Assembly: GCA_026986775.1 (NCBI GenBank)
Contig: JALSNX010000030.1
Span: forward strand, 79,483-143,482
Length of the DNA: 64,000 nt
Source of the DNA: a candidate division WOR-3 bacterium
Lineage (GTDB): Bacteria > Hydrothermota > Hydrothermia > UBA1063 > CAJXJZ01
Reading direction: 5' to 3'
How positions within the stretch are numbered: position 1 is the first letter of the stretch; the number at the start of each line of letters is the position of its first letter. A model generated the notes under the pieces. It was given only the letters and a program-made list of their open reading frames with translations. It had not been told where the DNA came from and did no database searches. A program made the translations under genes and the position numbers. This document shows positions 9,160 to 45,458 of the stretch, in pieces.

Positions 9160-9270
9160 CTACTGCACGCCTCCTTCTGAATTTTTGCCCCATTAAATAC
9201 TGGCAATTTAAATGCCAAAGGCTCACATCGCTTAAATACACACATTTCCATACATATCTCCCTCTTAAAC

Positions 9271-9304
9271 TTTCATTTTGAATTTTGAAATTTCATTTTG
9301 AAAT
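9271..9304 (-). promoter_or_regulatory. tandem TTTCA-N3-TGAAA inverted-repeat element about 110 nt upstream of the ankyrin gene start
   Basis: The sequence tttcattttgaattttgaaatttcattttgaaa contains two TTTCATTTTGAA units and an overlapping TGAAATTTCA palindrome. A near-identical element lies at 11878-11911, upstream of the second ankyrin gene. Confidence 0.4.
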
Positions 9305-12608: not shown

Positions 12609-12977
12609 ATGGGATTTACTTTTGAAGATATTATGGGAATATGGGCTCAGGTTACTGACTTCCCTGACGGATGGCAGGACCATATAGAAGAACTTCTTTT
12701 CAGAATCAATGAACTTAAGGACCAGGAAGAGTATTCCGGTTACAGAGAGAAGATTGATGAACTTCAAAATGAGGTCATTTCCTTAAAAAAGGATATTCTT
12801 GACACTGTTAATGATGCTCTGGAAGGGGCATTATCGCAGGACGATATTGAAAGCCTCTTCAGAGAATACGGTGATATGCTGTCTGAACTTGAACAGAAGG
12901 TCATAGAACTTGAACTTGAACCAGAAGAGGAGGATGAATCTTATTTCTGGGGCGATGAAGAAGAGGAGGAATTTTAA
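12609..12977 (+). CDS. small highly acidic hypothetical protein (coiled coil, poly-E C-terminus)
   Basis: AAAGGAGG RBS 7 nt before the ATG. Coding-like codon usage. It ends 5 nt before valS, and its C-terminus is EPEEEDESYFWGDEEEEEF. No domain recognised. Confidence 0.55.
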   Translation: MGFTFEDIMGIWAQVTDFPDGWQDHIEELLFRINELKDQEEYSGYREKIDELQNEVISLKKDILDTVNDALEGALSQDDIESLFREYGDMLSELEQKVIELELEPEEEDESYFWGDEEEEEF

Positions 12978-17766: not shown

Positions 17767-17866
17767 CTGTGACATGTCACAGTTGGTGTGACTTTCCCGT
17801 CACTGTGCTAAATTAAGGCAGCATATATAATTTACTATCATAAGTGTGACATCAAAGGTGTGACAT
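17767..17866 (+). promoter_or_regulatory. cluster of GTGACAT-type sites: perfect 16-bp palindrome CTGTGACATGTCACAG, inverted repeat TGTGA-N8-TCACT and two direct GTGTGACAT repeats (candidate UAS / operator)
   Basis: The palindrome lies at 17767-17782, directly after the stop of the previous gene. gTGTGActttcccgTCACt lies at 17786-17804. GTGTGACAT occurs at 17844-17852 and 17858-17866. The whole cluster sits about 50-150 nt upstream of a sigma-54 promoter. A similar cluster is present upstream of the 28252 gene. Confidence 0.5.
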
Positions 17867-17914: not shown

Positions 17915-17929
17915 TGGCACTTAAATTGC
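17915..17929 (+). promoter_or_regulatory. sigma-54 (RpoN) -24/-12 promoter, TGGCAC-N5-TTGC
   Basis: tggcacttaaattgc matches the TGGCACG-N4-TTGC consensus at every conserved position. The GC of the -12 element is 31 nt upstream of the ATG at 17960. Confidence 0.7.
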
Positions 17930-17959: not shown

Positions 17960-20824
17960 ATGAAATATCTGTTATTATTGTGGCTTATTGGATTTTTGAA
18001 TGCACAGGGTTATGAAGATATTGTGATAAAGGACACGATAGGATTAATAAGGGAACTTCCCAGAAGGGGAAAAGGATATAGCGTATGTATTGATACTGGA
18101 GGCAATTATGTATTCGCAGGTTATGCTGAAGAGCCGTATGATGCGTGGCTGGTGAAGTACAACTCTCAATTGCGTGATACTGTATGGATGCGGTTTTATG
18201 GGGGAGACGGGGATGATAGAATATACGATATGGCAATAGACAGCATGGGAAGTTATGTTTTGGTTGGTTATACCGAATCTTATGGTGCAGGCGGAAAGGA
18301 TGTGTGGATTTTAAAGATTGATCCTGAGAATGGTGATACGATATGGACGGATGTACTGGGTGGTGGAAATGATGACATTGCGTATGGAATAACTGTTGAC
18401 AGGGATGGGAACTATGTTATTACGGGTGAAACAAAATCATATGGCGATGATAATGGAGATTGTTTTATCCTGAAGATGAGGCCGAATAAGGACGCAATAT
18501 GGTTTAGAAGATACGGAACAGATCTGGAAGATGGCGGTTATGATATTGCCGTTGATACATCTGGAAATTATGTTGTGGCAGGACTTTATAATTTTGCATG
18601 GGAAAGTTCTTGGGGTGATGTATGGGTTTTGAAAATAGAATCTGATAGCGGTGATACTATATGGACACACAATTATGGTGATTCACAGGGTCAGATAGGT
18701 TATGGAATAGTGGTTGATGATAGTAACAGGTATGTTGTATCCGGGAAAACTTATCTTCCCGGGGCCAATGACAATGTATGGGTATTAAGGATTGATTCAC
18801 AGACAGGAGGACTGTTATGGGAGAGAAATTATGGTGCAGATGGAGGTGAAAGGGGATACAGTATTGTGCAGGATGTTGATGGGTTTTATATCATTGCCGG
18901 TTTTACTGCATCTTTCGGAGAGGGAGGACTTGATGCATGGGTTGTGAAAATAAGCCCTTCCTCCGGTGATACGGTGTGGACACATACGTATGGAACGGAA
19001 GATGACGATAGGGCAGAGGATATAATAGTGGTAAATGACAGTCTTTACATGATGTGCGGGTTTGATGCATCCCATTTTACAGCAAGAGAGATTAAAAGCA
19101 GTGATGGAACAGTATCTGATAGCATGGATTTTTCCATAAAACGGCTGGATATGGCCGCACTGGATGATAGAGGCTATGGTATTGCACTGGATTCATCAGG
19201 TTTTTATGTTATTACGGGTTATTCTGGAACCTATGAAACAGGTGAGGATGCATTGATTGTAAAGTATGATCCACAAATACATGACACTGTCTGGGCAAAA
19301 TTATATGGTGGAAGTGGTAATGATGGATGTTACGCCGTGAGTGTGGACAGAATTGGCTACTATGTTCTGGCGGGTTTTACGGAATCAGAAGGTGCCGGGG
19401 GCAAAGACTTCTGGGTTCTAAAGATATCTCCTCTTGATGGTGATACTATATGGACAAGACATTATGGAGGCAGTAGTGATGATGTTGCAAAGGGTATTGC
19501 AATTGATGATGACAACAATTACATTATTGTGGGGTACACAAAGTCTTATGGGGCAGGAGGAGGTGACCTCTGGATTTTAAAGATAAATTCTCAGAATGGG
19601 GATACTATCTGGTCCCGTATTTATGGTGGTAGTGAATTTGAAGGAGGAAATGGTGTTGCTGTGGATACTGCCGGTGATTATATAGTGTGTGGAAATACAT
19701 GGACCTATGACCCTGGAAACCTTGAAAATGTCTGGATCTTGAAAATAAATCATGAAACGGGTGATACCTTATGGACAAAGAGTTATGGGGACGAAGGGGG
19801 GCAGTGCGCTTTTGATGTGATTGTAGATAGAGACGGTAACTATGTTATTTCCGCAAAAACAACTTTTCATTACACGGATGATGTGTGGGTTTTAAAGGTA
19901 AATCCCATAACCGGGGATACATCCTGGACAGTGCATTACGGAACAGATAGAAATGAGAAGGGGTACAGTATCGCACAGGATAGGGAAGGATACTATGTTG
20001 TGGCGGGCTTTACGGACAAAAGGGGCACCAATAATCCGGATTACTATATTGGTAAAATCTCTCCTGATTCCGGAAAGTTGCTTTTTACAAGGAGATTAGG
20101 AGGAAATGGTGTTGACCGTGCGGAAGGAGTAATCGTTGACGATGACAGTTTTTATGTGGTGATTGGTTATTCAAATTCAACGTACAACGGGGATTATGAT
20201 GTTTATCTCGTAAAATACAACCCGTGGGATGAGAATCCACCAGTTATAGATAGTGTGACACGGATTGAAGATGATGATACCTACCCATACGGTCCCTATG
20301 AGATATGGGCTACAATAATGGACTCTTATTCCGGAGTAATTGAAGCGGTTTTACACTGGAAAACCGAACTTGATACATATTACAGGGATGTGGTTATGAC
20401 TGGTACACCATATAGCAAATTCAGGGCAACCATTCCAGAGATATTTACAACCATTGATAGCCTTAAATTGTTTTACTATGTAACAGCGAGAGATGGTGCA
20501 GGCAACGAGGCTGTTTCTGATACCCATGATTTTTATATCATAACAACATCTCATATAAAGGAGAAGCAGAATAACAGTGATATAGTTGTAAAAATGCCCT
20601 CCATTGTCAGAGGGAACAATTTAAAAGTATTGCTTTCCCTTAAAGAAGGCACAGAATACAGTCTGAGTGTGTTTTCAAAAGTTGGCAGGCTTGTTTGGTC
20701 AAAGCATGATGTTTTTACCTTCAAAGAAAATACTTTTCTTATGCCCGAATTTAAAAGAGGCGTTTATTTTCTTGAAATAAGGACCAAAAACAAAAGAAGA
20801 ATAGTGAGGTTTGTTGTAATTTAG
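17960..20824 (+). CDS. secreted T9SS cargo protein: SBBP-like beta-propeller repeats, one ~107-aa pre-CTD domain, T9SS C-terminal sorting domain
   Basis: Signal peptide MKYLLLLWLIGFLNAQG. About 14 repeats of ~47 aa with the pattern D.WxLK.D...GDTxWT..YGG...D.A.xI.VD.DGNYVxxG.T.SYGAGG. The C-terminal ~75 aa (SLSVFSKVGRLVWS...RGVYFLEIRTKNKRRIVRFVVI) fits a type-A Por secretion tail. Confidence 0.85.
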   Translation: MKYLLLLWLIGFLNAQGYEDIVIKDTIGLIRELPRRGKGYSVCIDTGGNYVFAGYAEEPYDAWLVKYNSQLRDTVWMRFYGGDGDDRIYDMAIDSMGSYVLVGYTESYGAGGKDVWILKIDPENGDTIWTDVLGGGNDDIAYGITVDRDGNYVITGETKSYGDDNGDCFILKMRPNKDAIWFRRYGTDLEDGGYDIAVDTSGNYVVAGLYNFAWESSWGDVWVLKIESDSGDTIWTHNYGDSQGQIGYGIVVDDSNRYVVSGKTYLPGANDNVWVLRIDSQTGGLLWERNYGADGGERGYSIVQDVDGFYIIAGFTASFGEGGLDAWVVKISPSSGDTVWTHTYGTEDDDRAEDIIVVNDSLYMMCGFDASHFTAREIKSSDGTVSDSMDFSIKRLDMAALDDRGYGIALDSSGFYVITGYSGTYETGEDALIVKYDPQIHDTVWAKLYGGSGNDGCYAVSVDRIGYYVLAGFTESEGAGGKDFWVLKISPLDGDTIWTRHYGGSSDDVAKGIAIDDDNNYIIVGYTKSYGAGGGDLWILKINSQNGDTIWSRIYGGSEFEGGNGVAVDTAGDYIVCGNTWTYDPGNLENVWILKINHETGDTLWTKSYGDEGGQCAFDVIVDRDGNYVISAKTTFHYTDDVWVLKVNPITGDTSWTVHYGTDRNEKGYSIAQDREGYYVVAGFTDKRGTNNPDYYIGKISPDSGKLLFTRRLGGNGVDRAEGVIVDDDSFYVVIGYSNSTYNGDYDVYLVKYNPWDENPPVIDSVTRIEDDDTYPYGPYEIWATIMDSYSGVIEAVLHWKTELDTYYRDVVMTGTPYSKFRATIPEIFTTIDSLKLFYYVTARDGAGNEAVSDTHDFYIITTSHIKEKQNNSDIVVKMPSIVRGNNLKVLLSLKEGTEYSLSVFSKVGRLVWSKHDVFTFKENTFLMPEFKRGVYFLEIRTKNKRRIVRFVVI

Positions 20825-20842: not shown

Positions 20843-23800
20843 ATGAAAAGGTTAATTGTAATACTCTTCATGGTATCACTACTCAAAGCCCAGAACTTCG
20901 GGGATGTTATCCTTGAGGATACCTTTGGGCTATATACTCCGGGTTCCGGGAATGGGGTAGCATGGGATGATCATGATAACACGGTAATCATAGCAGGTTA
21001 TAAAAGGGCTCATGGTTCGGCTGTAAAAAAAGGATGGCTTATTAAATATGACCCGTTAAGTGATGATACGATCTGGAGCAGGTTCTATGGCAATTATAAG
21101 TATGACTTTTTCAACGATGTGGCTTATGATCCTTCGGGGTATTATGTGGCAGTGGGTGCTTCAGCTACATCTTCAAGTGTTGATTTCTGGATTTTGAAAC
21201 TGACTACTGATGGAAATGTTGAATGGCAGGGAATATACGGGAATCCTTCGCTTTATGATGAAGCAAAGGCAGTTACGCTTGATAGTGCTGGTGATTATGT
21301 TGTGGTGGGATATGAAAGAGATTCAGACGGTGTAGATAAAGCGGCGATTTTAAAGATAGATGCTAACACTAATGATACTGTGTGGACAAGAGTTTACAAT
21401 ACACCGGACACGAGCCGTCTTTATGATGTTTTCATTGACCCCAATGGATATTATGTAGGGGTTGGAGAGATTTACGAGGCAGGATACGGATGGAAAATGG
21501 CGCTTTGGGTGATAGCACCTAACAATGGTGACATTGTGGGCGGAGATGAATACGGCACAAGTGGGAGCAATCACAGGGGCCGCTGTGGCCTTATGAGTTC
21601 TGATAACAACTTCATTATTGCAGGCTATACGGATGTAAATGGCGACAAAGACTATGAAATTTTGAAAATAAAATATTCCGACTTTAGTGTTATATGGGAT
21701 AGCACTTATGCTATCAGCGGAGATCAGGAGGCATGGGAGATAACGAGAATAAATGAGGATGTTTATGTTGGAGGGTACTCTTCGGAAAAAGGAAATAAAG
21801 ATGGCTTTATGATGGTAATAGACGATGGATTTGGCAGAGTTGTAGATATGGACCTTAATGGTTTATCTGATGTTGATGACTGGGAAAAAAGTGTCGTCGT
21901 GTATCAGGATACCATCCTCAGTGTGGGTGGAAGCGAAAATGAGCATCTTCTTACACATATAAGGCATTCCCAGAATATCAGAGACAGTCATCTAAAAGAC
22001 CTGTCTCTGCGTATAGGTTATGAGGATAGAGCATATGCCATTGCCATTGATTCTTCTGGAAATTACATTATAGTGGGAAATACCCATTCGCCCGATGATG
22101 CAGACCACTGGCAGATACTGGCTGTAAAATACGACCCTGTACAGGATAGAGTTTTATGGTGGAAAGTTTACAGTCAGAGATGGGGGGACAGTAAAGCCAA
22201 TAAAGTTATTGTTGATAGAGACGGATATTATGCTATAGCGGGTTATACTGTAAACTCTTCGGGAAATAAAGACGTATGGGTTTTGAAACTCAATCCCAAT
22301 ACGGGTGATACTGTGTGGACAGGGGTCTTTGGTGGTGACAGTGACGAAGTTGCAATGGACATAATAGAGGATTTAAACGGTGATTATGCAGTTGCAGGTT
22401 ATACTACATCTTATGGTGCAGGCCGGGAGGATGGCTGGCTTTTGGTGCTTAATGCTTCAACGGGAGATACTCTTTATACAAAAACATACGGTGGTTCCGA
22501 GTATGATGTATTTAACGCAATAGCAGAGGATAATGGTTATTACATTCTGGCAGGTGTATCTTCCGAACTGCACGGGTGGGGTGATGACTGGATTTTAAAG
22601 GTTGATGCTCAAAATGGGGATACTGTGTGGCAAAGATACTATGGGGACCAAGAGGGTCAGATTGCCTATGATGTTATTGTGGATAGAGACGGTAACTATG
22701 TGGTAGGTGGTAAAACATATACAAATTCCACCCAAGATGATGTCTGGGTTTTAAAGATAGAGAGCGATAGCGGTGACACAATATGGACAAAGTCCTACGG
22801 AGGCTCAGATTCAGAAAGAGGCTTCAGCATAAGAGAGGATAAGGAGGGCTTTTATGTGATAGCAGGTTTCACAAGGTCATATGGTGCAGGCTCGTCAGAT
22901 TACTGGGCTTTAAAACTTGACCCCGAAAATGGTGCTACGCTGGGCCAAAAAACCTTCGGTGGTACAGGGGATGACATGGCAGAGTGTGTATCAGTGGATG
23001 ACAGCAACCATTATGTCATAACAGGTTTCTCCAATTCCACCACTACAGGTGGTTATGATTTTTACACCGTAAAAATATATCAGGGCGATAACCTCCCGCC
23101 AGTGTTTGATTCAATAACGCAACTTCCTAATGACACAACCCTGCCATTCGGGCCCTATCAGGTGGATGTTAAAATAACGGATAATCTTTCGGGGGTTGAC
23201 AGAGGCAGGCTGTACTGGAAGTCATCCGAAGATGCTGATTTTTCCTACAGTTCTTTGACATACAATACTAACAACTGGTGGGGTGCAAGTATTTCGGAGA
23301 TAAACATTACAGGAGATAGTGCCCTCGTCTATTATTATGTTGATGCTTATGATTCCGCAGGAAATTATGGAGTATCGGATACTCTCAGTTTCTGGGTCAT
23401 AAAGCCCGACACGGAGCCACCTTTAATAGATTCTCTTACACAGGTGGATAAAGACACAACCATTCCTCATGGCCCTTATGAAGTAAGGGTAAAGGCATGG
23501 GATGAATATAGGGGCGTAAACAATGTTCGTCTTTACTGGAAGGATGAGGCATCAAGTACATTTACGGAGAGTTTCATGGACAGTCTCGGTGGTGACTGGT
23601 GGGTAGATTCCATACCGGAGCAGGTATTAAACAACGACAGCACGGTGATTTACTACTATGTTATAGCAGAGGACAATGCTGGCAATACGAGTTATTCGGA
23701 TACCATTTCATTTCGGGTAATAGACCCTGACACAACGGTGCCTCAAATAGATTCATTAACACAACTTGAAAAAGACACCACCATACCGCATGGACCCTAC

Positions 23801-26800
23801 GAGGTTATGGTGAAGGCATGGGATAATTATAAAGGCATGGGCAATGTTGAGTTCTACTGGAAGAGCGCAGGAGATACTGTATTCACCGAGAGTTTCATGG
23901 ACAGTCTCGGTGGTGACTGGCGGATAGATTCCATACCGGAGCAGGTATTAAACAACGACAGCACAGTTATTTACTACTATGTTATAGCAGAGGACAATGC
24001 AGGCAATACGACTTATTCAGATACCCTTTCATTCTGGGTAATAGACCCGGATACAACTATACCTCTTGTGGATAATCTCACACAACTTGAAAAAGATACA
24101 ACCATACCGCATGGCCCCTATGAAATCAAGGTGGAGGGCTATGACAATTACAAGGGCCTTAATAGTGTAAAACTTTACTGGCGAAGAAATACAGATACTG
24201 TTTTTAATGAAAGTTCCATGATTGATTATGATTCAACACATTACTGGGTAGACTCTATACCTGAACAGGTACTTAATAACGATAGTGTTGAGATTTATTA
24301 CTATGTAATGGCGGAGGATGTGGGTGGCAACCGTGCGTACACGGATACCCTCTCTTTCTGGGTAATAGACCCTGACACAACGGTGCCTCAAATAGATTCA
24401 TTAACACAACTTGAAAACGACACCACCATACCGCATGGACCCTACGAGGTTAAGATAAAGGCATGGGATGATTATAAGGGTATGGGCAATATGAAGTTTT
24501 ACTGCAAGAGCGCGGAGGATACTGTATTCACAGAGAGTTTCATGGATAGTCTTGGTGGTAACTGGTGGGTGGATACGATACCGGAAGAGGTATTAAACAA
24601 CGACAGCACAGAGATTTATTACTATGTTATAGCAGAAGACAATGCGGGCAATACGAGTTATTCGGACACCCTCTCTTTCTGGGTAATAGACCCCGACACA
24701 ACAGTGCCAGAGATAGATTCATTAACGCAAATTGAAAAAGACACCACCATACCGCATGGACCCTACGAGGTTAAGGTGAAGGCATGGGACGATTATAAAG
24801 GCATATCAAATGTTAAGTTCTACTGGAAAAATGATGCATCTGGAACATTTACGGAGAGTTTCATGGACAGTCTCGGTGGTAATTGGTGGGTGGATTCCAT
24901 ACCTGAGCAGGTATTAAACAACGACAGCACAATAATTTATTACTATGTTGTAGCCGAAGATATAGGCGGCAATATTACCTGTTCGGATACCTTGAGTTTC
25001 TGGGTAATAGACCCCGACACCTTACCACCTGAAATTGACTCACTCACGAAGGTTTTAAGCGATACTACCTTACCTTTTGGACCCTATGAGGTTAAGGTGA
25101 AGTCATGGGATGAGTATGGTAGTATTCAGGATGTAAAATTCTACTGGAAAAACGATACAATGTCTGATTTCACAGTGGGGAATATGGCATATCTGGGTGG
25201 GGATTGGTGGGTAGATTCTATACCACAGCAGGAATTTGCCGCCGACAGTATGTCTATTCTTTACTATGTGGTATCAGAGGATAGTGCAGGCAATTCAACC
25301 ATAACAGATACCATGAGTTTCTGGATGGTAAAGCCCGACACGGAGCCACCTTTAATAGATTCTCTCACGCAGGTGGATAAAGACACGACAATACCTCATG
25401 GTCCTTATGAAATAAGGGTAAAGGCATGGGATGAGTACAGGGGCGTAAGCAATGTTCGTCTTTACTGGAAGGATGACACATCAAGTACATTTACGGAGAG
25501 TTTCATGGACAGTCTCGGTGGTGACTGGTGGATAGATTCCATACCGGAGCAGATATTAAACAACGACAGCACAGTTATTTATTACTATGTTATAGCCGAG
25601 GACAATGCCGGTAATACGAGTTATTCGGATACCATTTCATTCTGGGTAGTAGACCCTGATACAACAGTACCACAGATAGATTCAGTGACACAGCTTGAAA
25701 GAGACAATAACCCACCTTACGGGCCATATGATGTATGGAGCAAGGTAAAAGATGAATACAGGGGACTTGCTGATGTTGAACTCTACTGGAAAAAGGAATC
25801 CCAGCCGGCATTCATACAGGTTTCTATGTCAGGGACTTCAGATGACTGGTGGTACGGTAGTATACCCGAGCAGACGCTTGATACTGATAGCATAAGAATT
25901 GTTTACTATGTAAAAGCAACCGATCTGGGAGGAAATACTTCATATTCTGATACTTTGAGTTTCTACATAGTAAAACCCGATACCATGGCTCCTCAGATAG
26001 ATTCCCTTACACAGGTTGATAACGACTCAACCGCTCCTTATGGTCCCTATGAAGTCAGAGTGAAGGTGACAGACCTTTACAAGAAAGCAGGAAGTCTATT
26101 TGGTAAAGGTGTGTTAAAAGACATAAAGGACAAGGAGACATCACAAGTGAAACTCTACTGGAAACTGGAGACAGAGGCCGTTTTCAACGAAAACAGTATG
26201 GCTTATCTTGGTAACAACTGGTGGATAGACAGCATTCCAGAGGAGAGTTTCAGCACAGATAGCGTAAGAGTTCTTTATTATGTGAGTGCCATGGATGATG
26301 CCGGTAATACTTCATATTCGGATACCCTGTCATTCTGGCTTATAAAACTTGATACCGTAAAACCTGTAATAGATACGGTTACACAGATTGAAAGGGATTC
26401 GGTGCCTCCTTATGGCCCCTATGAGGTATGGGTAAATGCCACAGATAACAAAGGAGTAAAATACACAAGGCTTTACTGGAAAAGGGCATCTCAGCCGGCA
26501 TTTGTTCAGATTGATATGAACCATGCAGCAGGGAACTGGTGGGTTGATAGTATTCCAGAGCAGACACTCAATCAGGATAGCGTATTGATACTATACTACG
26601 CTGAAGCAGTTGATTCTTCGGGCAATACATGTATTTCGGACACATTGGGGTTCTGGATTGTAAGCCCTGATACAATGCCGCCTGTGATAGATTCCCTTGC
26701 TCAGATTGAAAATGATACAATGCCACCCTATGGCCCTTATGAAGTTAGAGTAAAAGTTACAGATAGTAGAAAAGGACAGGTTGTTTTCGGCATTTATAAA

Positions 26801-28009
26801 AACAATAAGCATATTGCCTTATTGAATGGTAAAGATGCATTTCTTGATAAATCAGCAGGAAAAGGTGTAGGAAGTGTGAAACTTTACTGGAAAAACGACC
26901 AGGATGCTGTATTCCATGAAAGCGATATGAGCCTCCAGAGTGGTGACTGGTGGATAGATACAATACCACAGCAGAGTCCTGCTACGCATACCATGGGTGT
27001 TATATATTATGTCAAAGCTACAGACGAGGCGGGTAATACGGCTTATTCTGATACATTGAGTTTTGTTATAGTCACACCCGATACAACACCGCCGGTAATA
27101 GACTCCCTTACACAACTTGAAAACGATACTACATTCCCGCATGGTCCGTATAATATAGATGTCAAGGTAATGGATGATTACAGGGGCGTTTCAGGTGTAA
27201 CGCTTTACTGGAGAACCTCACTGATGTCTGACTTTTCACACGATGCCATGGTTAATATCTCAGGCAACTGGTGGCATGATACGATACCGCAGATTGACTT
27301 TACCAGTGTTGATAGTGTTGAGATTTTCTATTTCGTGACTGCAGCTGACTCATCTTCAAATATGTCTGTCTCGGACACTTTGAGTTTCTGGGTAATAAAC
27401 CCCGATACCACACCACCCGAGATAGATTCCCTTACACAGATAGAAAACGACTCAACCTCTCCTTATGGACCCTATGAGGTCTGGGTTAAGGTGGTGGATG
27501 GTTATACGGGTGTGGACAGTGTTAAATTGCTCTATAAGAAACAGTCTCAGCCTGCCTTTGTAGAAAGTAATATGAGTTATGTTGCTCAGAACTGGTGGGT
27601 GGATACAATCCCTGAACAGAGCCTTCAGGCGGAAGATAGTGTAATAGTTATGCTCTACTACATATATGCCATTGATAATGCCGGAAATGAAGTCGTCTCT
27701 GATACTCTGAGTTTTGAACTGATAAATCCGGAATATCTAATAGAAGAAGGGAAGTCTATCACACAATTTGGCGTGAAAATCCCGTCCGTGTGCAGAAACA
27801 GATTGAGTTTTGTCTTTATGGCGCCGTCTTCAGATATATACAGCGTAAAAGTATATTCTGTAAACGGCAGGCTCTTATTCAATGACAGAGGAAAAATAAA
27901 GAGAGGATTGACACTCATGAATCTTCCGCTGCATAAAGGTGGTCTTTACTTTGTAAGGATAAAATTCCATGGAAAAACATACTATGGAAAGGTTCTTCTG
28001 GTAAAATGA
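20843..28009 (+). CDS. giant (2388 aa) T9SS cargo protein: SBBP-like propeller repeats plus 14 tandem ~107-aa repeats plus T9SS C-terminal domain
   Basis: Signal peptide. N-terminal repeats are as in the 17960 gene. From about aa 748 there are 14 in-frame tandem copies of PDT.xP.IDSLTQ.EKDTTIPHGPYEVKVKAWD.YKG..NVKFYWK....FTESFMDSLGG.WWVDSIPEQVLNNDST.IYYYVIAEDNAGNTSYSDTLSFWVID. The C-terminus (YSVKVYSVNGRLLFND...GGLYFVRIKF...KVLLVK) is T9SS CTD-like. It is 18 nt downstream of the previous gene and probably co-transcribed. Confidence 0.85.
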   Translation: MKRLIVILFMVSLLKAQNFGDVILEDTFGLYTPGSGNGVAWDDHDNTVIIAGYKRAHGSAVKKGWLIKYDPLSDDTIWSRFYGNYKYDFFNDVAYDPSGYYVAVGASATSSSVDFWILKLTTDGNVEWQGIYGNPSLYDEAKAVTLDSAGDYVVVGYERDSDGVDKAAILKIDANTNDTVWTRVYNTPDTSRLYDVFIDPNGYYVGVGEIYEAGYGWKMALWVIAPNNGDIVGGDEYGTSGSNHRGRCGLMSSDNNFIIAGYTDVNGDKDYEILKIKYSDFSVIWDSTYAISGDQEAWEITRINEDVYVGGYSSEKGNKDGFMMVIDDGFGRVVDMDLNGLSDVDDWEKSVVVYQDTILSVGGSENEHLLTHIRHSQNIRDSHLKDLSLRIGYEDRAYAIAIDSSGNYIIVGNTHSPDDADHWQILAVKYDPVQDRVLWWKVYSQRWGDSKANKVIVDRDGYYAIAGYTVNSSGNKDVWVLKLNPNTGDTVWTGVFGGDSDEVAMDIIEDLNGDYAVAGYTTSYGAGREDGWLLVLNASTGDTLYTKTYGGSEYDVFNAIAEDNGYYILAGVSSELHGWGDDWILKVDAQNGDTVWQRYYGDQEGQIAYDVIVDRDGNYVVGGKTYTNSTQDDVWVLKIESDSGDTIWTKSYGGSDSERGFSIREDKEGFYVIAGFTRSYGAGSSDYWALKLDPENGATLGQKTFGGTGDDMAECVSVDDSNHYVITGFSNSTTTGGYDFYTVKIYQGDNLPPVFDSITQLPNDTTLPFGPYQVDVKITDNLSGVDRGRLYWKSSEDADFSYSSLTYNTNNWWGASISEINITGDSALVYYYVDAYDSAGNYGVSDTLSFWVIKPDTEPPLIDSLTQVDKDTTIPHGPYEVRVKAWDEYRGVNNVRLYWKDEASSTFTESFMDSLGGDWWVDSIPEQVLNNDSTVIYYYVIAEDNAGNTSYSDTISFRVIDPDTTVPQIDSLTQLEKDTTIPHGPYEVMVKAWDNYKGMGNVEFYWKSAGDTVFTESFMDSLGGDWRIDSIPEQVLNNDSTVIYYYVIAEDNAGNTTYSDTLSFWVIDPDTTIPLVDNLTQLEKDTTIPHGPYEIKVEGYDNYKGLNSVKLYWRRNTDTVFNESSMIDYDSTHYWVDSIPEQVLNNDSVEIYYYVMAEDVGGNRAYTDTLSFWVIDPDTTVPQIDSLTQLENDTTIPHGPYEVKIKAWDDYKGMGNMKFYCKSAEDTVFTESFMDSLGGNWWVDTIPEEVLNNDSTEIYYYVIAEDNAGNTSYSDTLSFWVIDPDTTVPEIDSLTQIEKDTTIPHGPYEVKVKAWDDYKGISNVKFYWKNDASGTFTESFMDSLGGNWWVDSIPEQVLNNDSTIIYYYVVAEDIGGNITCSDTLSFWVIDPDTLPPEIDSLTKVLSDTTLPFGPYEVKVKSWDEYGSIQDVKFYWKNDTMSDFTVGNMAYLGGDWWVDSIPQQEFAADSMSILYYVVSEDSAGNSTITDTMSFWMVKPDTEPPLIDSLTQVDKDTTIPHGPYEIRVKAWDEYRGVSNVRLYWKDDTSSTFTESFMDSLGGDWWIDSIPEQILNNDSTVIYYYVIAEDNAGNTSYSDTISFWVVDPDTTVPQIDSVTQLERDNNPPYGPYDVWSKVKDEYRGLADVELYWKKESQPAFIQVSMSGTSDDWWYGSIPEQTLDTDSIRIVYYVKATDLGGNTSYSDTLSFYIVKPDTMAPQIDSLTQVDNDSTAPYGPYEVRVKVTDLYKKAGSLFGKGVLKDIKDKETSQVKLYWKLETEAVFNENSMAYLGNNWWIDSIPEESFSTDSVRVLYYVSAMDDAGNTSYSDTLSFWLIKLDTVKPVIDTVTQIERDSVPPYGPYEVWVNATDNKGVKYTRLYWKRASQPAFVQIDMNHAAGNWWVDSIPEQTLNQDSVLILYYAEAVDSSGNTCISDTLGFWIVSPDTMPPVIDSLAQIENDTMPPYGPYEVRVKVTDSRKGQVVFGIYKNNKHIALLNGKDAFLDKSAGKGVGSVKLYWKNDQDAVFHESDMSLQSGDWWIDTIPQQSPATHTMGVIYYVKATDEAGNTAYSDTLSFVIVTPDTTPPVIDSLTQLENDTTFPHGPYNIDVKVMDDYRGVSGVTLYWRTSLMSDFSHDAMVNISGNWWHDTIPQIDFTSVDSVEIFYFVTAADSSSNMSVSDTLSFWVINPDTTPPEIDSLTQIENDSTSPYGPYEVWVKVVDGYTGVDSVKLLYKKQSQPAFVESNMSYVAQNWWVDTIPEQSLQAEDSVIVMLYYIYAIDNAGNEVVSDTLSFELINPEYLIEEGKSITQFGVKIPSVCRNRLSFVFMAPSSDIYSVKVYSVNGRLLFNDRGKIKRGLTLMNLPLHKGGLYFVRIKFHGKTYYGKVLLVK
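23085..27730 (+). repeat. array of 14 tandem ~321-nt coding repeats; several copies are nearly identical at nucleotide level
   Basis: For example, 23380-23640 and 25300-25560 differ at only a handful of positions (ttctgg.t..taaagcccgacacggagccacctttaatagattctct.ac.caggtggataaagacac...). Copies near the array ends are more divergent, including two with insertions (around 26060 and 26760). Confidence 0.9.
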
Positions 28010-28024
28010 GGAAAACTAAGCAAA

Positions 28025-28052
28025 CAGAGCCCCCATATAAGGGGGCTCTTTA
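28025..28052 (+). terminator. intrinsic terminator candidate after the 2388-aa gene
   Basis: agagccccc-atataa-gggggctct hairpin followed by TTTACTGTTTTA. Confidence 0.55.
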
Positions 28053-28060
28053 CTGTTTTA

Positions 28061-28149
28061 TGACACATTGCTGTGACATGAATGGTCACAGTTTAACATG
28101 TTGTTATGTAAGGAGTTTAATTCTGGGGTGTGACATGGAGTTATGACAT
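28061..28149 (+). promoter_or_regulatory. second cluster of GTGACAT-type sites (inverted repeat CTGTGAC-N7-GTCACAG; direct GTGTGACATG / ATGACAT)
   Basis: The sequence tgacacattgCTGTGACatgaatgGTCACAG lies at 28061-28091. The sequence GTGTGACATGgagttATGACAT lies at 28128-28149. These share their half-site with the 17767-17866 cluster. The cluster sits about 60-150 nt upstream of a sigma-54-like promoter. Confidence 0.5.
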
Positions 28150-28210
28150 TTTGAGTATTGATTTTATTGGTTTTAAAGGTGTTGGTTGTAAATCAATAAC
28201 TTATGTACTA

Positions 28211-28225
28211 TGGCTTGAAAATTGC
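28211..28225 (+). promoter_or_regulatory. sigma-54-type -24/-12 promoter candidate, TGGCTT-N5-TTGC
   Basis: tggcttgaaaattgc has GG and GC at exactly the consensus spacing, with two mismatches in the -24 hexamer. The GC is 27 nt upstream of the ATG at 28252, which has an AAAGGAGG RBS. Confidence 0.5.
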
Positions 28226-28251: not shown

Positions 28252-31200
28252 ATGAGGCGTTTTGTATTAGCCATACTTTTATCTATGGGATTTCTTCTGG
28301 CAGCAGGAGAGTCCGATATTATGTGGCAACAGACCTTCGGGTCTGATACCGATGATGTTTTTTACAGTGTATCTGTCTGGGACAGCACTCCTTATTATTA
28401 CATTGGTGGAGCTACCATGGCTGGCGGAACGAACTACGACTACTGGATTTTGGCCCTTGACCCTGGTAACAGTTCACCTGTGTGGGAATATACTTTCGGT
28501 GCCGGTGGTCATGAGCAGGCCTACGGCATATCAAATGGTTATGCTCCGGGTTATGGAGGGTTTATAGCCACCACCGGATACACATATTCCTATGGGAATG
28601 GGCAAAACGACTTAATGTCGCTTGCCATGACAGCAGGTGGTAGTTTTCTGGATACCATGCTTATAGGTGGTGCAAGTTATGATGTAGGCTACAGCGTTTT
28701 TGCCGGAGAGGATGGTACCTATGTTGATGCGGGAAGAACACACAGTTATTCTGGTGATGGAGATATGATAGTTACCAAATATATCCTGGCTGACGGCCAC
28801 ATTATTGACACCATCTGGTCACAGGTGTTTCATGCGTCAGATTCCTTTGATGTAGCAACTTCAGTTATAAGGTATCAGGATGTTGATATTGTTGGTGGAT
28901 ATACTAATGGAACTGGCAATTACGACGGGATTATACTTGTTCTGAGTGACTCTTCAGGTGAGAGAGTCGCCGATTACGAATTCAGGGGTTCTGGTAATGA
29001 TTATATCAAGGCCCTTACAGTGGATAGAGATGGCAACATAATTGGTGCTGGATATTCAACAACAGACAGTCATGGTGGTGACGATGTCTGGATTTTTAAA
29101 ATGGCGCCAGATGGCACGGTTTTATGGGATAAAAAGTATGGTGGTCCTCTTGATGACAGGGCAAACAGTGTATTCATTGATTCAAACGGAAATGTTGTTA
29201 TTGGTGGGTACACGGAAAGTTATGGACAGGGAAATGAGGATTGCTTTATCCTCTCTGTGAACCTTGTAGATGGAAAGCCAAACTGGTACAGGGTTTATGG
29301 AGGCTCGGGAACGGATATCCTGTATGGTTCCACACTCGGAAACAAGGGAGAGGGTGTGTTTGTTGGAAAAACTTCGTCTTTTGGTGCAGGTTCCTATGAT
29401 GGCTGGATTATAACGATGAACCTTGATGTTACTCCGTTAAGGATAAGTGGATTTGTTCCCCGTGTGATACCTCTTTCCACCACGAGAAAAATTTATGTGT
29501 ATGGAACCGGATTTTCAGGCTACGATGCAGGTGAGATAAACATAAACTTTGTTGATGCGTCAGGTGTCGTGCAGGCTGCGGTGCATCCTGATGAGGTGAT
29601 TTCTGATGATGAACTTGTGGCAACTGTAAACCTTTCGGGTATCCCCACTGGTTCCTACAGTGTATATATTGATGCAGGAGGAATAGTTACTACCGATACA
29701 CTAAAAGGTGTGGTTTATGTTATAAATCAGGGCGCAGATGAAAAGTATTTGAGTTATGTTAATGTGGGCAGCACGGGACCCATAGGAACCATGGCATCAG
29801 GTGATGCTGACAACGATGGCAGGATAGAACTTTACGCAGGTGGAGGCTATTATCTGGGAAGCACGCTTTACTATCCCCTTATGAAGATAAGTGGCAGTGG
29901 CGGTGGACTTTCAGTTGATACAATATGGAGTATCCGCACAGGTGCCCGTGCGATTGTTATAAGTGATGTTGATATGGATGGGAAAAATGAGATGTACATA
30001 GGTTATGGTGATTTCTCAAGTGGAACTGTTTCCAGACTCAGATGGAATGGCACCTCATGGACGGAAGATACCGTATTGAATACTGATTATGTAATTATGG
30101 GGCTTGATGCGGGCAGCATTTATGGACAGAGTAAAAGGTCACTTTATGCAGTATCCTATGACAGTACATTCTATGAGATTACAAAAACAGCTTCAGGATA
30201 CAGTAAAGACACATTTATGGTTTCAGGTTATGGTGCTTTCATAGATGTGAAATTGGGAGACCTTGAGAGGGATGGTAAGGTAAAGGCCTATGTATCAACT
30301 GCAAGTGGAAAGATTCTGGAAATAAAAAGGGATAGTTATGGCAATTTTGTCTATACCACTATTTCCGAATCTCTAATTAAAAACATAGGAACGATGGGCA
30401 GGCTCTATATAACCGATGCTGATAATAATGGGTATGAGGAACTCTATGCTTCCAGTGTTGTAGGAGTTTATGATGATATTTTTGATCTTAAGATAACATA
30501 CAATAGCGGTGCTTTTGTATTTGATACCATTGGCAGGGAGTTTATTGACTTAAGAACACAGATTATAGTTGAGGACTTAAACGGTGATGGAAAGGTAAAC
30601 CTGTACGGTACGGGATGGTATCACGGTTTTTACAAAGAACCTCTGGAAGATGGCAGTTGGGCATGCGGTGTGGGTTCGGTTTATAATGCCACAATGGAGC
30701 CGGGACAGGCGGCAGGTTATGTTGACCTTGATGGTTCGGGAAATCTCACCATATTTGCAGGCGGCGCAGGTATGCTTTACAGACTTGTGCCCCAGAATAC
30801 AGCACCACAGTTTAAAACCCTTGAGGTGTTTAAATACTTCCCACAGACTGCACCCGAAAATAAAGACTTTAAACTTGTCGTATACGGCAGGGGATTGAAC
30901 AATGCACAGGAAGTAAGACTTGAAGGTGATGCGGGAAGTTTTTCCGGAACGATAGACAGCCGATATTATCCGCGCATTGTGGTTTCTTTTAACGGGATGC
31001 CCGAAGGACACTATAACCTTCTGGTTGTCTCTGCATCCTCAACGGATACAATAAGGGATGCTGTATGTATAAATAAATCCACTTATTATCCTGATGGGAC
31101 CGCCCATATAAGGATTGATACCATGTTTTCCACACCTTCTGGTGTGCCACTTTACAGTCTTGTAAAGGGTGACCTTGATAAGGATGGCCATGTAGAACTT

Positions 31201-34200
31201 TATGCAGGAAGCGCAGGAAAGATATATAAAATCTATAAAGACCCAGTTGCAGACTCTGTTAATATTGAAGATATAGGACTGACATTTTCTTACGATGTCA
31301 GAACCCTTCTTTATGGCGATGTTGACAATAGCGGAGAGAAGAAACTCTTTTACAGGGACAGTATGGATATGGGAGTTATATATTACGATGGCTCATATCA
31401 TAAGGTTTCTTTCCACAAATATCCCAATAATGCATCAGGGTATCTGACAGATAATATAAACCTTGTGGATTTGAACGGTAACGGGTTCAATGAACTTGTT
31501 AATATGTCCTATAACGGACTTCTCAATCTGTTTGAGATATATCAGGACAGTTTTGTGCTTTCAAACACAAAGAGGATATTTACGTCAAATAGTTTTTATA
31601 CAGATGTTGATTATGGAGCTTTTGTGGGTGCACCAGATAATATGGAACTTTATGTCACGGGGACAGATGCATGCTCTGGTAGTTACTGTGATGGTAAGAT
31701 AAAGAGGATAAAATACAACTATGACCTGTGGCAGGTAATTGATGTTTATTCAAATACAGAACCCTATACCATTACCCTATCTCCCATGAAAGTTCTTGCA
31801 GATGATACAGGCAATGACGAATTATTCTTCTTTGATATGGCTGATACTGCTGTATATAGAATGACATACGGTGGCAGTGGGTATTTGAGTACAGGGGTGC
31901 ATACAACGCTGGAAAGTGAACTTATTTTTGACAGGGCTGACCTTGATAATGATGGAACTGTAGAATACTGGGGCATTGGTGATTATTATCTTCGTGAATT
32001 TCTGCTGACGGGTTCTTCCTTTACCACTGTGGACAGCGTGTATTTACCGGATGTAAATGATATTGCAGGATTTGACCTTGATGGGGATAACAAACTTGAG
32101 ATGTATGCCATAACCAGCTATGGAAAAGTTTTAAAGATACATAAAGTTTTTAAGAAGAAATTGAGGGTAAGAAAAACTGACCCTGTAATATTCTCCCGTG
32201 CCTCTGAGGATTCTCTCATTACTATTTTTGGTGGCGGATTTACACTGTTTGATAAAGATTCTTTGAATGTTAACCTGATTGATAAAAACGGTAATTCAGT
32301 CATGGTACTCAATCCGGACACAGTAATGAGCTATACGCGGCTTTCACTTCATTTACCTGTTTCTGCCATCAACCCCGGATGGTATGATATGGTAATTTCT
32401 TATGATACGATAAAATCGGATACTTTAAAAGATGCTGTGTTTATTTCAGGAGAGCCTTTAAAACATTATATATACAGAGTTGATACTATTGGACGTATTG
32501 CCTCGTCGTTAAGATGGTATATTACGAAGGCGGATATGGATGGGGACGGAAGGATGGAATACTATGTACATGATGATGGACATATATACAAAATCACCTA
32601 TAATTATGGCTCACATGCATGGAGTATAAGCACAATTTACACAGGCAATTTGTATGTTTCAAGTCTTGTGGCAGGAGATATGGACCATGATGGTAAGATG
32701 GAACTGTATTTCAGTCCCTTTGCTACAACTCCAACTCCTGTTTACTGTATAAAAATGGAGGCGGATACATACAGAGTAGATAGTATAAGTTATTTCTCCT
32801 CTGGAGCGAAAATAGGCATAGGCGATGCCGACAACGACGGTGAGGATGAACTTCTGGGTTACTCTGTGCATGGTGTTCTGAATGTATTAAACTTCAGAGA
32901 TTCCACATGGGAGAGAAAGACTTATACCATTGAAAGCGTTGCCGCTACTTCTGATATAGTGGTGGCAGATGTGGATAATGATGGATTCAATGAAATCTAT
33001 ACTTACGGTGCGCCTTCAGGACAGACAGATGCAGGTCTTATAAAGATAACACTCGCACCTTATTTAAGTTCAGAATATGTTTACGTAGATTACAATATTG
33101 CAGTGGGTGGCATAAAAATCTATGATATTGACGGCGATGGACAGGAAGAACTCTACACAGGTAGTTATGGCAGTGATGGTAAAACTACGATTTACCTATT
33201 TAGATATTTAAATTCAGGGTATTATTCCTCGGAAGTCATGAAGAATGAAGGTCTTGCAGGAGATATAGGTGTCGGTGACCTTGATAATGACGGTAAAAAC
33301 GAGATTGCCGCTGGTTTTTATTCGCTGCTTGAAATGGTAAAAGAAAATAATGATTACAAACGGATTATAACCGGCATTGATACCATAGTGGGTATTCTCC
33401 CAGCAAGTATAAATGACACCACAAGACTTGACATGCTCGTAACCACCAGAAGCGGTTATCTTGTTCACATCAGTCAGGAGCCCTTACCGATTGATTCTGC
33501 TGTATCAGTAAATGGACTCCTTACATCCATTATTCCTGTTGGTGATTCACTGATAACCGTTTTATATGGCAAAAACCTGAACAATGTGCAGAATATATAT
33601 GTTGAGAAGTCACAGGGCAGTTACCAGAAGGAGGCCACCATTTTAGAGGTATCTTCAGGTGGAAACTATGCAAAGATTGTAATACCGCCTCTTGACACAG
33701 CAGGTTACTACAATGTTATTGTCCACGGTAATGGTGATGATACACTTTACAGCGGGCTTCTGGCTAATAATATCTATTCAGAAACGGATAATGGAATTGT
33801 AGAGATAGATACTTTGAAAGATATAGGTGGAAGAAAGCATAAAGACACCTACTACTATATGAGTATAACCTCAGTTGACCTTGATAAAGACGGCAAGAAA
33901 GAGGTGTATGTCGCAGGAGACAGTTTGTGGACTGTGGACTATGTTGGTGATACCTTTGTGGTAAATTCAATTATGGACATTCCGGGAGTGGCAAACTGCA
34001 TAACATACGGCAGATTCATGAAGGATACGGTATCCCTCTTTGTGGGGACCACTTCAGGTGAAATCTATGAATTGTCACCGAATGATACGGGCTTTACCAT
34101 TTTGAAGGTATTTGACCTTTCCATGGCAGGGCTTTCTTCTTCAATAACAAATGGTATAAAGATAATGGATGTGGACAACGATAAAAACAATGAACTTATA

Positions 34201-35803: not shown

Positions 35804-36028
35804 ATGCAGAACCTCGTTGTAAAGGTCAGAGAGGGAGAGATTGTATTTAAAAGCGCCGTCCTGAAAGGTGCCGACATTAAGATTTACAGGGAGGATGGGG
35901 AAATGGTATTTGCAAGGGAGAACCATCCCATAGACCACCTCACTGTGAAGAATCTGAAGAAGGGTGTGTATAAATACACAATAAACTCAGGCGGGCAATC
36001 TCTTTCAGGGAGGGTGGTGGTGATATAA
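35804..36028 (+). CDS. orphan T9SS C-terminal-domain-like small ORF (74 aa) with no signal peptide
   Basis: The ATG lies 2 nt after the giant gene's TAA, in a different frame. The sequence VVKVREGEIVFKSAVLKGADIKIYREDGEMVF...KNLKKGVYKYTINSGGQSLSGRVVVI has the strand pattern and terminal hydrophobic residues of a Por secretion tail. There is no obvious RBS. Confidence 0.4.
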   Translation: MQNLVVKVREGEIVFKSAVLKGADIKIYREDGEMVFARENHPIDHLTVKNLKKGVYKYTINSGGQSLSGRVVVI

Positions 36029-36034
36029 ATTTAT

Positions 36035-36094
36035 GGGGCCCTCCGGCTTCCCCCCACACGATACCCATCTTTCGGAGGGCCCTTCTTTTTTATT
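36035..36094. terminator. bidirectional intrinsic terminator between convergent genes
   Basis: ggggccctccg...cggagggccc forms a 10-bp GC stem with a long loop. It is followed by TTCTTTTTTATT on the plus strand and by an A/T-rich run on the minus strand. It sits between the stops of the 35804 ORF and the sigma-54 activator gene. Confidence 0.6.
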
Positions 36095-40426: not shown

Positions 40427-40480
40427 ACGGATATTATAAAGACTTTCAGAGAGTTTATGAAGCGGTTATTTTTACTATTC

Positions 40481-40509
40481 TTGACAGTCCACCCCTGAAA
40501 CTTGATAAT
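40481..40509 (+). promoter_or_regulatory. sigma-70-like promoter (TTGACA-17-GATAAT) for the DUF4139 gene
   Basis: ttgacagtccacccctgaaacttgataat. It lies about 20 nt upstream of the GGGGGAG RBS / ATG at 40530. Confidence 0.45.
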
Positions 40510-40529
40510 AATTTAAAAAGGGGGAGACT

Positions 40530-45383: not shown

Positions 45384-45458
45384 GGCCTCGTCGTCTAGCC
45401 AGGTCTAGGACACCGGCCTTTCACGCCGGCGACAGGGGTTCGAATCCCCTCGAGGCCA
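45384..45458 (+). tRNA. tRNA-Glu (anticodon UUC), CCA not encoded
   Basis: GGCCTCG acceptor stem paired with CGAGGCC. The D-arm TCGTCTAGCCAGGTCTAGGAC and anticodon stem-loop CCGGCCTTTCACGCCGG are nearly identical to E. coli tRNA-Glu. T-arm GGGGTTCGAATCCCC. Confidence 0.9.

Follow-up and report, generated by a model that had tools for sequence, protein, structure and literature searches.

Transcription from sigma-54 promoters begins ~12 nt downstream of the -12 element, and the enhancer-binding proteins (EBPs) of the NtrC family act on such promoters through upstream activating sequences (UASs), for example the NtrC sites at glnAp2 and the NifA UAS, TGT-N10-ACA. Sites for EBPs with a Fis-type helix-turn-helix (HTH) are typically dyad-symmetric with fixed spacing. 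Sigma-54 activators with an N-terminal forkhead-associated (FHA) domain have reportedly been found in Myxococcus xanthus; to our knowledge, FHA-type EBPs have been little studied outside the myxobacteria. The operators of CRP and FNR have the forms TGTGA-N6-TCACA and TTGAT-N4-ATCAA, respectively.

Here, we analyse a 64,000-nt stretch of DNA from a candidate division WOR-3 bacterium, referred to below as the window, in which two intergenic regions carry repeated copies of a 9-bp element. We took clustered repeated sites ~80–200 bp upstream of a sigma-54 promoter as the hallmark of an EBP UAS. Both regions have this arrangement, with several sites ahead of a -24/-12 promoter as in NtrC-family UASs. 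Like the NtrC-family EBPs, the candidate binder combines a central AAA+ domain with a C-terminal Fis-type HTH, and its gene adjoins the targets. The sites differ from NtrC-family UASs in that the 9-bp units form pairs 13–14 bp apart and occur in mixed orientation rather than as a fixed dyad, and both orientation and spacing vary, unlike in typical Fis-type EBP sites. The protein also departs from the NtrC family, with FHA and GAF domains in place of a receiver domain, GAFSGA as its sigma-54 contact loop and candidate division WOR-3 as its host.

Repeated elements in two intergenic regions

A preliminary description of this DNA had reported a perfect 16-bp palindrome and a half-site present at least four times in each of the two regions, arranged as inverted and direct repeats with TGTGA...TCACA spacings of N4, N8 and N9. 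These observations hold. The palindrome has the sequence and coordinates given there, five exact copies of TGTGAC lie in region 1 and three in region 2 (together with two TATGAC variants), inverted and direct arrangements are present in both regions, and the three spacings are correct. The sites are as follows.

17767–17782, unstranded: distal site pair of promoter 1, the perfect 16-bp palindrome CTGTGACATGTCACAG, formed by two overlapping inverted copies of CTGTGACAT at 17767–17775 (+) and 17774–17782 (-)
17786–17805, unstranded: second distal pair of promoter 1, GTGTGACTT at 17786–17794 (+) and a weak inverted CAGTGACGG at 17797–17805 (-)
17844–17852 and 17858–17866, + strand: proximal direct pair of promoter 1, GTGTGACAT-N5-GTGTGACAT, period 14
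28058–28091, unstranded: distal sites of promoter 2, a weak TTATGACAC at 28058–28066 (+), CTGTGACAT at 28071–28079 (+) and an inverted CTGTGACCA at 28083–28091 (-)
28128–28136 and 28141–28149, + strand: proximal direct pair of promoter 2, GTGTGACAT-N4-TTATGACAT, period 13

The second distal pair of region 1 includes the inverted repeat GTGTGAC-N6-GTCAC (17786–17803), and an AT-rich gap of 40 bp separates the distal sites from the proximal direct pair. The corresponding inverted repeat in region 2 is CTGTGAC-N7-GTCACAG (28071–28091), and the core centres of the three distal sites there are 13 and 12 bp apart. Another reading divides region 2 into three 13-bp pairs, of which one is degenerate; more speculatively, such a set would suit three dimers assembling into a hexamer.

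Seventeen sites from the window and from the orthologous loci described below define the consensus (G/C)TGTGACAT. The base 5' of TGTGAC is G in ten sites, C in six and A in one, being mostly C in distal sites and mostly G in proximal sites. On the 3' side, A follows TGTGAC in 12 of the 17 sites, and the next base is T in 15. Across six promoters, the sites are centred between 52 and 153 bp upstream of the T of TGGC in the sigma-54 element, the distal ones between 123 and 153 bp. The proximal centres fall at discrete positions in all promoters, ~52, ~65 and ~78 bp upstream; two neighbouring positions are filled at each promoter and the ~65 position is filled in five of six. In promoter 1, for example, the proximal centres are 67 and 53 bp upstream. 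The proximal sites thus form pairs 13–14 bp apart. The distal sites are often inverted and variably spaced, and neighbouring cores are mostly 11–14 bp apart, with no constant spacing between inverted copies. The core, TGT(G/C)ACA, is nearly two-fold symmetric, which may be the reason that orientation is not conserved.

Sigma-54 promoters and target genes

A canonical TGGC-N7-TTGC element, which the preliminary description had not mentioned, lies downstream of each proximal pair, at a distance of 48 bp in region 1 and 61 bp in region 2. Both elements have -24 GG and -12 GC at the fixed spacing and face a gene, as a sigma-54 promoter should, and a Shine–Dalgarno sequence lies between the element and the start codon in both cases. 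The strict TGGC-N7-TTGC pattern occurs four times in 64 kb, against 1.45 expected, and a promoter scan of both regions gave no convincing sigma-70 promoter. The promoters, the intervening terminator and the genes that they precede are listed below.

17915–17929, + strand: sigma-54 -24/-12 element of promoter 1, TGGCACTTAAATTGC, ending 31 nt before the ATG at 17960
17960–20824, + strand: target gene 1, a 954-aa beta-propeller repeat protein with a type IX secretion (T9SS) C-terminal sorting domain
20843–28009, + strand: target gene 2, a 2388-aa bacterial Ig-like (Big) repeat protein
28026–28049, + strand: intrinsic terminator with a 9-bp stem, seven GC pairs and a T-rich tail
28211–28225, + strand: sigma-54 -24/-12 element of promoter 2, TGGCTTGAAAATTGC, ending 27 nt before the ATG at 28252
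28252–35802, + strand: target gene 3, a 2516-aa beta-propeller/TIG/FG-GAP repeat protein with a T9SS C-terminal sorting domain
35804–36028, + strand: 74-aa ORF with a weak Por_Secre_tail-like match, starting 2 nt past the 2516-aa gene

Target gene 2 begins 19 bp past gene 1 and is presumably co-transcribed with it from promoter 1. The terminator lies between the 2388-aa gene and region 2, and the second giant gene therefore has its own insulated promoter. The 954-aa and 2516-aa proteins have beta-propeller repeats in common, at ~28% identity. An ORF of 74–78 aa occupies the position of the 74-aa ORF in four orthologous loci. The genes that immediately precede region 1 have housekeeping functions (ValRS, an amidase and an IF-2B-family protein).

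The palindrome begins one base past the stop codon of the IF-2B-family gene, a placement that might suggest that the distal palindromes act as RNA, forming terminator or stabilising hairpins for the upstream genes, and that the likeness of the two regions is incidental. Indeed, positions 17755–17815 fold into two hairpins at -16.2 kcal/mol (z = -3.0). The inverted repeat of region 2, however, folds no better than its shuffles (z = -1.3), and a separate canonical terminator, at 28026–28049, already stands ahead of that region. An intrinsic terminator at 17767–17782 was rejected because the palindrome has no T-run and was not called by the terminator scan. In the orthologous WOR-3 promoter of locus L003 (see below), the inverted copies lie ~25 nt apart, so that the sequence is kept and the hairpin is not. 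An RNA function would also leave the direct-repeat pairs unexplained, and an Rfam scan found a tRNA at 45384 as its only hit and no known RNA family at the sites. We consider this reading very unlikely, and only the distal palindrome of region 1 is even a candidate for it.

Clustering and specificity of the elements

In the window, all six exact TGTGACAT octamers fall within the two intergenic regions, and elsewhere 6-mers occur singly and no more densely than background. The window has two clusters in which 120 bp hold three or more copies of TGTGAC; first-order Markov simulations gave two such clusters in 0 of 500 runs and one in 13 of 500. When the window is taken together with the orthologous loci L003 and L005 (107.7 kb), 17 of 40 TGTGAC hexamers lie within 200 bp upstream of the five sigma-54 elements.

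These distributions bear on the idea that the motif is a dispersed repeat of the REP or MITE type, or a chance cluster, with no regulatory role. The raw octamer count is unremarkable (6 observed and 3.0 expected, with 8 of 100 shuffles reaching 6), and the same tandem 23–24-mer is found in many unrelated genomes, as such a repeat or chance would predict. A search for the tandem pair by itself, in one genome per species for 185,579 species, found it 70 times, at 57 loci. Tandem arrays and an element that recurs in Bacteroidales raise this number, for which a rough chance estimate is ~35. The matches in unrelated genomes, however, lack sigma-54 elements, and their number is near chance. When a strict sigma-54 element was required no more than 150 bp downstream of the tandem pair, only the WOR-3 orthologous promoter was recovered from the same 185,579 genomes. 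The preliminary description had named copies dispersed at unrelated positions and inside genes as the finding that would undo a regulatory reading. The exact copies lie only in the two promoter regions, with none inside genes, and the 20 kb of additional source contig (10 kb past each window end) held no further sites or clusters. A REP or MITE element was rejected on these grounds. Because, in addition, the position of the motif relative to sigma-54 elements is kept across diverged genomes, an element without regulatory function seems to us extremely improbable.

A metagenome scan with the pattern TGTGACAT-N5/6-TRTGACAT-N40-70-TGGC-N7-TTGC returned two loci that were not retained: in L067, the ~4 kb surrounding the site are devoid of ORFs of at least 80 aa, and in L068 no ORF follows the site. 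Since roughly one match was expected by chance, we treat both as chance occurrences. The scan did not return the L005 contig, although this contig matches the pattern, which indicates that the scanned collection does not cover these organisms.

The motif is also specific within the window. A third sigma-54-type promoter, at 9203–9217 (-), has a different upstream repeat, TTCAAAATGAAA, and a single weak GGTGACAT, with no motif cluster; the operon downstream of it codes for an ankyrin protein, a zinc-ribbon protein, two kinases and a PP2C phosphatase. Another gene for T9SS cargo, at 51073, lacks both the motif and a sigma-54 element.

The adjoining enhancer-binding protein

Beyond the second transcription unit are two genes on the opposite strand.

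36093–37931, - strand: candidate binder, a 612-aa EBP with the domain order FHA-GAF-AAA+-HTH_8, convergent with the end of the second unit
37931–40426, - strand: 831-aa Ser/Thr protein kinase with TPR repeats, abutting the EBP gene

The EBP matches PF00158 (Sigma54_activat) with E = 1.9e-67 and 226.6 bits, against a cut-off of 20.2, and also AAA_lid_14. It contains a Walker A motif (GESGTGKE), a Walker B motif (LFLDEL) and a C-terminal Fis-type HTH (PF02954, HTH_8; residues 572–605, E = 1.4e-9). The conserved residues of the FHA domain are kept (Gly21-Arg22, Ser36, His39 and Asn63-Gly64). A Pfam scan of 30 window ORFs, taking in every ORF of at least 400 aa, gave no other EBP. That it is intact implies the presence of rpoN, without amounting to proof. 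The kinase and EBP genes are presumed to be co-transcribed, with the kinase as the signal input through the FHA domain. The promoter region of this operon (40427–40529) does not contain the motif.

A search of 5.8 billion proteins identified only four clusters of EBP orthologues, with identities of 56, 55, 55 and 44%; below these, identity was at most 39%. At each of the five loci, a kinase gene directly precedes that of the EBP. Where more distant homologues have the canonical sigma-54 contact loop, GAFTGA, the five orthologues have GAFSGA. They also have one and the same recognition helix in the HTH, GISRRHLYR(I/L)MEKY, despite overall identity as low as ~44–45%. The next-closest FHA-GAF EBPs have different recognition helices, such as GIHPNSLLRLIRNL and GISRFALQRKMDKY. 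A helix common to the five orthologues and replaced outside them fits a DNA specificity that is confined to this small orthologous group.

Conservation in orthologous loci

Wherever a promoter is visible beside an EBP orthologue, the same motif and sigma-54 architecture are found. The sample comprises three independent lineages and five or six promoters, the contigs of two further orthologues (P0002 and P0004) ending inside the giant gene. Conservation in related promoters had been put forward in the preliminary description as a check on the sites, and they pass it: in two other organisms, the motif and the sigma-54 element are retained beside the EBP orthologue while the flanking DNA has diverged.

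The first of these is L003, a WOR-3 metagenome-assembled genome (JALVYB010000051.1 of GCA_027038175.1), whose EBP is 55% identical to that of the window. The gene order is kinase, EBP, 75-aa ORF and a 2517-aa FG-GAP gene, and the giant protein is 29% identical to its counterpart in the window. The promoter consists of CTGTGACCA, ~25 nt, an inverted GTGTGACAT, the pair GTGTGACAT-N4-GTGTGACAT, 60 nt and TGGCATCAAAATTGC, and the other intergenic DNA has diverged. When this promoter is aligned with both window promoters, the invariant columns belong mainly to three islands: the proximal pair, the sigma-54 element, and the start codon together with its ribosome-binding site. These islands form a classical phylogenetic footprint.

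In the second organism, represented by a JGI contig (L005), the EBP is 44% identical and the neighbouring genes, encoding a 224-aa CBM96 protein and a 111-aa protein, are unrelated to those in the window. Two sigma-54 elements lie directly downstream of the EBP gene, and the motif is present ahead of each. The first promoter has CTGTGACAT and the palindrome GTGTGACGTCACAC, followed by TGGCAATTAAATTGC; the second has ATGTGACAT-N4-GTGTGACAT, followed by TGGCAGGAAATTTGC. Since the motif is found beside the EBP even though the target genes are unrelated, it follows the regulator and not the targets.

A sister strain (L071) was the one specific match in a search with the 954-aa protein, the others being generic. 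It is 98% identical over the promoter 2 region, with 11 substitutions in 256 bp. Six of the 11 fall in the 16 bp around the proximal pair (28137–28152); five of these are in the spacer or 3' flank, and the sixth turns TATGACAT into the consensus TGTGACAT, the second proximal site being TTGTGACAT. TGGC and TTGC are unchanged. Another locus, L074, encodes a protein 32% identical to the 954-aa protein and has neither a sigma-54 element nor the motif; it is probably not an orthologue. With the first 500 residues of the FG-GAP giant protein as query, only generic beta-propeller repeat proteins were recovered, spread over many phyla, and none led to an orthologous promoter.

Proposed assignment of the binding protein

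The sites could be genuine and still belong to a regulator encoded elsewhere, such as another EBP, a CRP/FNR-type dimer or a repressor or co-activator, with the adjoining EBP binding something else. TGTGA/TCACA resembles the half-sites of CRP-family proteins, and one copy here is a perfect palindrome, as in CRP/FNR operators. Further EBPs are also probable, given that the window has at least one additional sigma-54-type promoter whose upstream repeat differs. The preliminary description had noted the likeness to CRP/FNR operators, along with spacings other than N6. The shared pentamer and the spacings stand, but the resemblance appears superficial. The inverted halves are separated by N4, N8 and N9 in the window, and the TGTGAC/GTCACA gap is N0 and ~N25 in the orthologous promoters, so that spacing is not kept between orthologous promoters and the conserved feature is instead the direct-repeat pair. 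Such variation is incompatible with a rigid CRP/FNR dimer, which requires N6 or N4, and a CRP/FNR operator was rejected because dyad half-sites with a fixed, conserved spacing are absent. The sites are also far upstream of a sigma-54, not a sigma-70, promoter, and a position ~80–175 bp upstream of the start suits an enhancer rather than a class I or class II CRP site. With respect to regulators encoded elsewhere more generally, the motif accompanies the EBP orthologue even where the targets differ (L005), and the recognition helix is identical among the orthologues. A regulator other than the adjoining EBP is thus unlikely, though this is where the main residual uncertainty lies.

We infer that the (G/C)TGTGACAT elements are probably the enhancer of the two sigma-54 promoters and that they are bound by the EBP encoded at 36093–37931, an assignment made by association from sequence comparisons. 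Points against it are the varying orientation and spacing of the sites, the GAFSGA loop of the orthologues, the lack of the motif ahead of the EBP's own operon and the small number of lineages and promoters in the sample. The motif is accordingly predicted to be a lineage-specific UAS. The preliminary description had suggested the site of a dimeric regulator, possibly the UAS of the neighbouring EBP. The second half of this proposal is favoured by the sigma-54 elements, the adjoining EBP gene and the L003 and L005 promoters. The dimeric half fits less well, because inverted spacing ranges from N0 to ~N25 and the conserved unit is the 13–14 bp pair.

Discussion

The arrangement described here suggests a mechanism for the control of the giant genes. 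Sigma-54 RNA polymerase would wait as a closed complex on TGGC-N7-TTGC, 27–31 nt upstream of the start codons of two units, the first encoding the 954-aa and 2388-aa proteins and the second the 2516-aa and 74-aa proteins. The EBP would bind the 9-bp elements, of which there are four to six per promoter ~80–175 bp upstream of the predicted transcription start, through its C-terminal Fis-type HTH, and clustered sites would help the active AAA+ oligomer to assemble. It would then reach the polymerase by DNA looping and open the promoter with ATP hydrolysis. The EBP would presumably be gated by the co-transcribed Ser/Thr kinase, through an FHA domain that recognises phosphothreonine, by a ligand bound to GAF, or by both, and the output would be giant type IX-secreted surface proteins.

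By its sensory module, the closest described class is the FHA-domain EBPs of M. xanthus, a group for which PMC12288465 gives as its reference 91 Jelsbak, Givskov and Kaiser (2005), PNAS 102:3010. The window protein is likewise a sigma-54 activator with an N-terminal FHA domain, a module that implies input from Ser/Thr kinase signalling and not from a histidine kinase. It differs from the M. xanthus proteins in its extra GAF domain, in a gene that always lies beside that of a kinase and in belonging to an unrelated phylum, and it apparently controls T9SS cargo genes, in contrast to the developmental genes controlled in M. xanthus.

Judged from its sequence features, then, the locus would work like the UAS of an NtrC-family EBP, and the protein has the domains that define the family (Sigma54_activat and HTH). 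What is new is the recognition motif, its mixed-orientation layout on a 13-bp repeat, the FHA-GAF-kinase module in WOR-3 and the giant T9SS surface proteins as a regulon. In the literature searched, we found no description of (G/C)TGTGACAT as a UAS and no paper linking WOR-3 with sigma-54.

A more specific model can be put forward only tentatively, and we regard it as possible rather than probable. The HTH would read the pseudo-palindromic heptamer TGT(G/C)ACA in either orientation, on a ~13-bp ladder that would template oligomer assembly. This ladder would be the DNA end of a pathway running from a eukaryote-like Ser/Thr kinase through FHA to sigma-54, confined to a small WOR-3 lineage, and the pathway would determine when giant T9SS adhesins are displayed, for instance to attach the cell to a partner or substrate.

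The finding leaves the current understanding of sigma-54 regulation unchanged and concerns a known kind of gene switch. It does provide a candidate circuit, from kinase through FHA-GAF activator and 9-bp element to giant T9SS output, in WOR-3, known here from metagenome-assembled genomes alone. With a predicted motif and clear promoters in hand, footprinting, reporter assays and prediction of the regulon are straightforward. The circuit also suggests that these organisms place very costly surface proteins, of 950 to 2500 residues, under tight signal gating.

Additional sigma-54-type elements and a candidate second regulatory circuit

Two further sigma-54-type elements are found in the window, in addition to the promoters that carry the motif upstream of the giant T9SS-protein genes:

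9203-9217, minus strand: third sigma-54-type promoter, with the sequence TGGCATTTAAATTGC, followed after 44 nt by the ATG at 9159
44904-44918, minus strand: fourth strict sigma-54-like match, TGGCACATATATTGC, within a 320-aa ORF (44258-45220) and upstream of a TPR gene

The operon behind the third promoter encodes an ankyrin protein, a zinc-ribbon protein, an unknown protein, two Ser/Thr kinases and a PP2C phosphatase. Upstream lie two to three copies of a repeat, TTCAAAATGAAA, at window 9262-9300. Because this repeat differs from the TGTGAC-core motif, the arrangement suggests that a second enhancer-binding protein (EBP) with its own enhancer would serve this promoter. The motif cluster is absent at the fourth match, which is either a promoter inside the ORF or fortuitous.

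Sigma-54 contact loop of the EBP and IHF-like sites

In all five orthologues of the EBP, including the one encoded in the window (36093-37931, minus strand), the canonical GAFTGA of the sigma-54 contact loop (residues about 392-397) is replaced by GAFSGA; more distant FHA-GAF EBPs retain GAFTGA. Matches to the IHF-like consensus WATCAR-N4-TTR are present near two of the five promoters, starting 20 bp upstream of TGGC in the window (AATCAATAACTTA, 28191-28203) and 18 bp upstream of it in the JGI contig L005 (TATCAAGAGGTTA, about 12809-12821). The consensus has just 10 matches in the entire 64-kb window, counting both strands, and an exact match is absent from the remaining three promoters.

Sequences resembling the motif in unrelated genomes

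The scan of one genome per species for the tandem motif pair also recovered a near-identical element, GTGTGACATTTTT(C/T)(C)TGTGACATT, common to ∼18 loci (L010, L013-L017, L019, L025, L029, L039, L047, L049, L050, L054, L057, L058, L061 and L062). Nearly all of its hosts are Bacteroidales (Alistipes, Prevotellaceae, Bacteroides, Barnesiella, Butyricimonas, Parabacteroides and Paraprevotella), plus one genome titled Eggerthellaceae. No sigma-54 element lies downstream of it in these loci, and it is a conserved, unrelated element. Short tandem arrays containing GTGTGACAT with a period of 13-14, found in unrelated genomes (L012, L036, L045, L048, L040 and L032) and exemplified by eight overlapping matches in a Metamycoplasmataceae MAG, are simple tandem repeats rather than promoters. 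In L074 (119-140), TTTCACA-N4-TTTCACA, in which TGTGAAA is directly repeated as its reverse complement, precedes the gene for a distant homologue (32% identity) of the 954-aa beta-propeller protein. A sigma-54 element is absent there, and the likeness of this repeat to the motif is probably coincidental.

Genes of the giant-protein operons

A 74-aa ORF (35804-36028, plus strand) begins 2 nt past the giant FG-GAP gene, and ORFs of 74-78 aa occupy the equivalent position in three loci with EBP orthologues (L003, L006 and L008). It hits the T9SS C-terminal sorting domain weakly and below threshold, and on that basis may encode a stand-alone CTD-like mini-protein. The Big-repeat gene product is 2388 aa long in the window (20843-28009) and 1959 aa in L071 (2505-8384), a sister strain that shares 96% identity with the window in the 954-aa product of the adjacent gene. 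This difference in length suggests that repeat domains are rapidly gained or lost.
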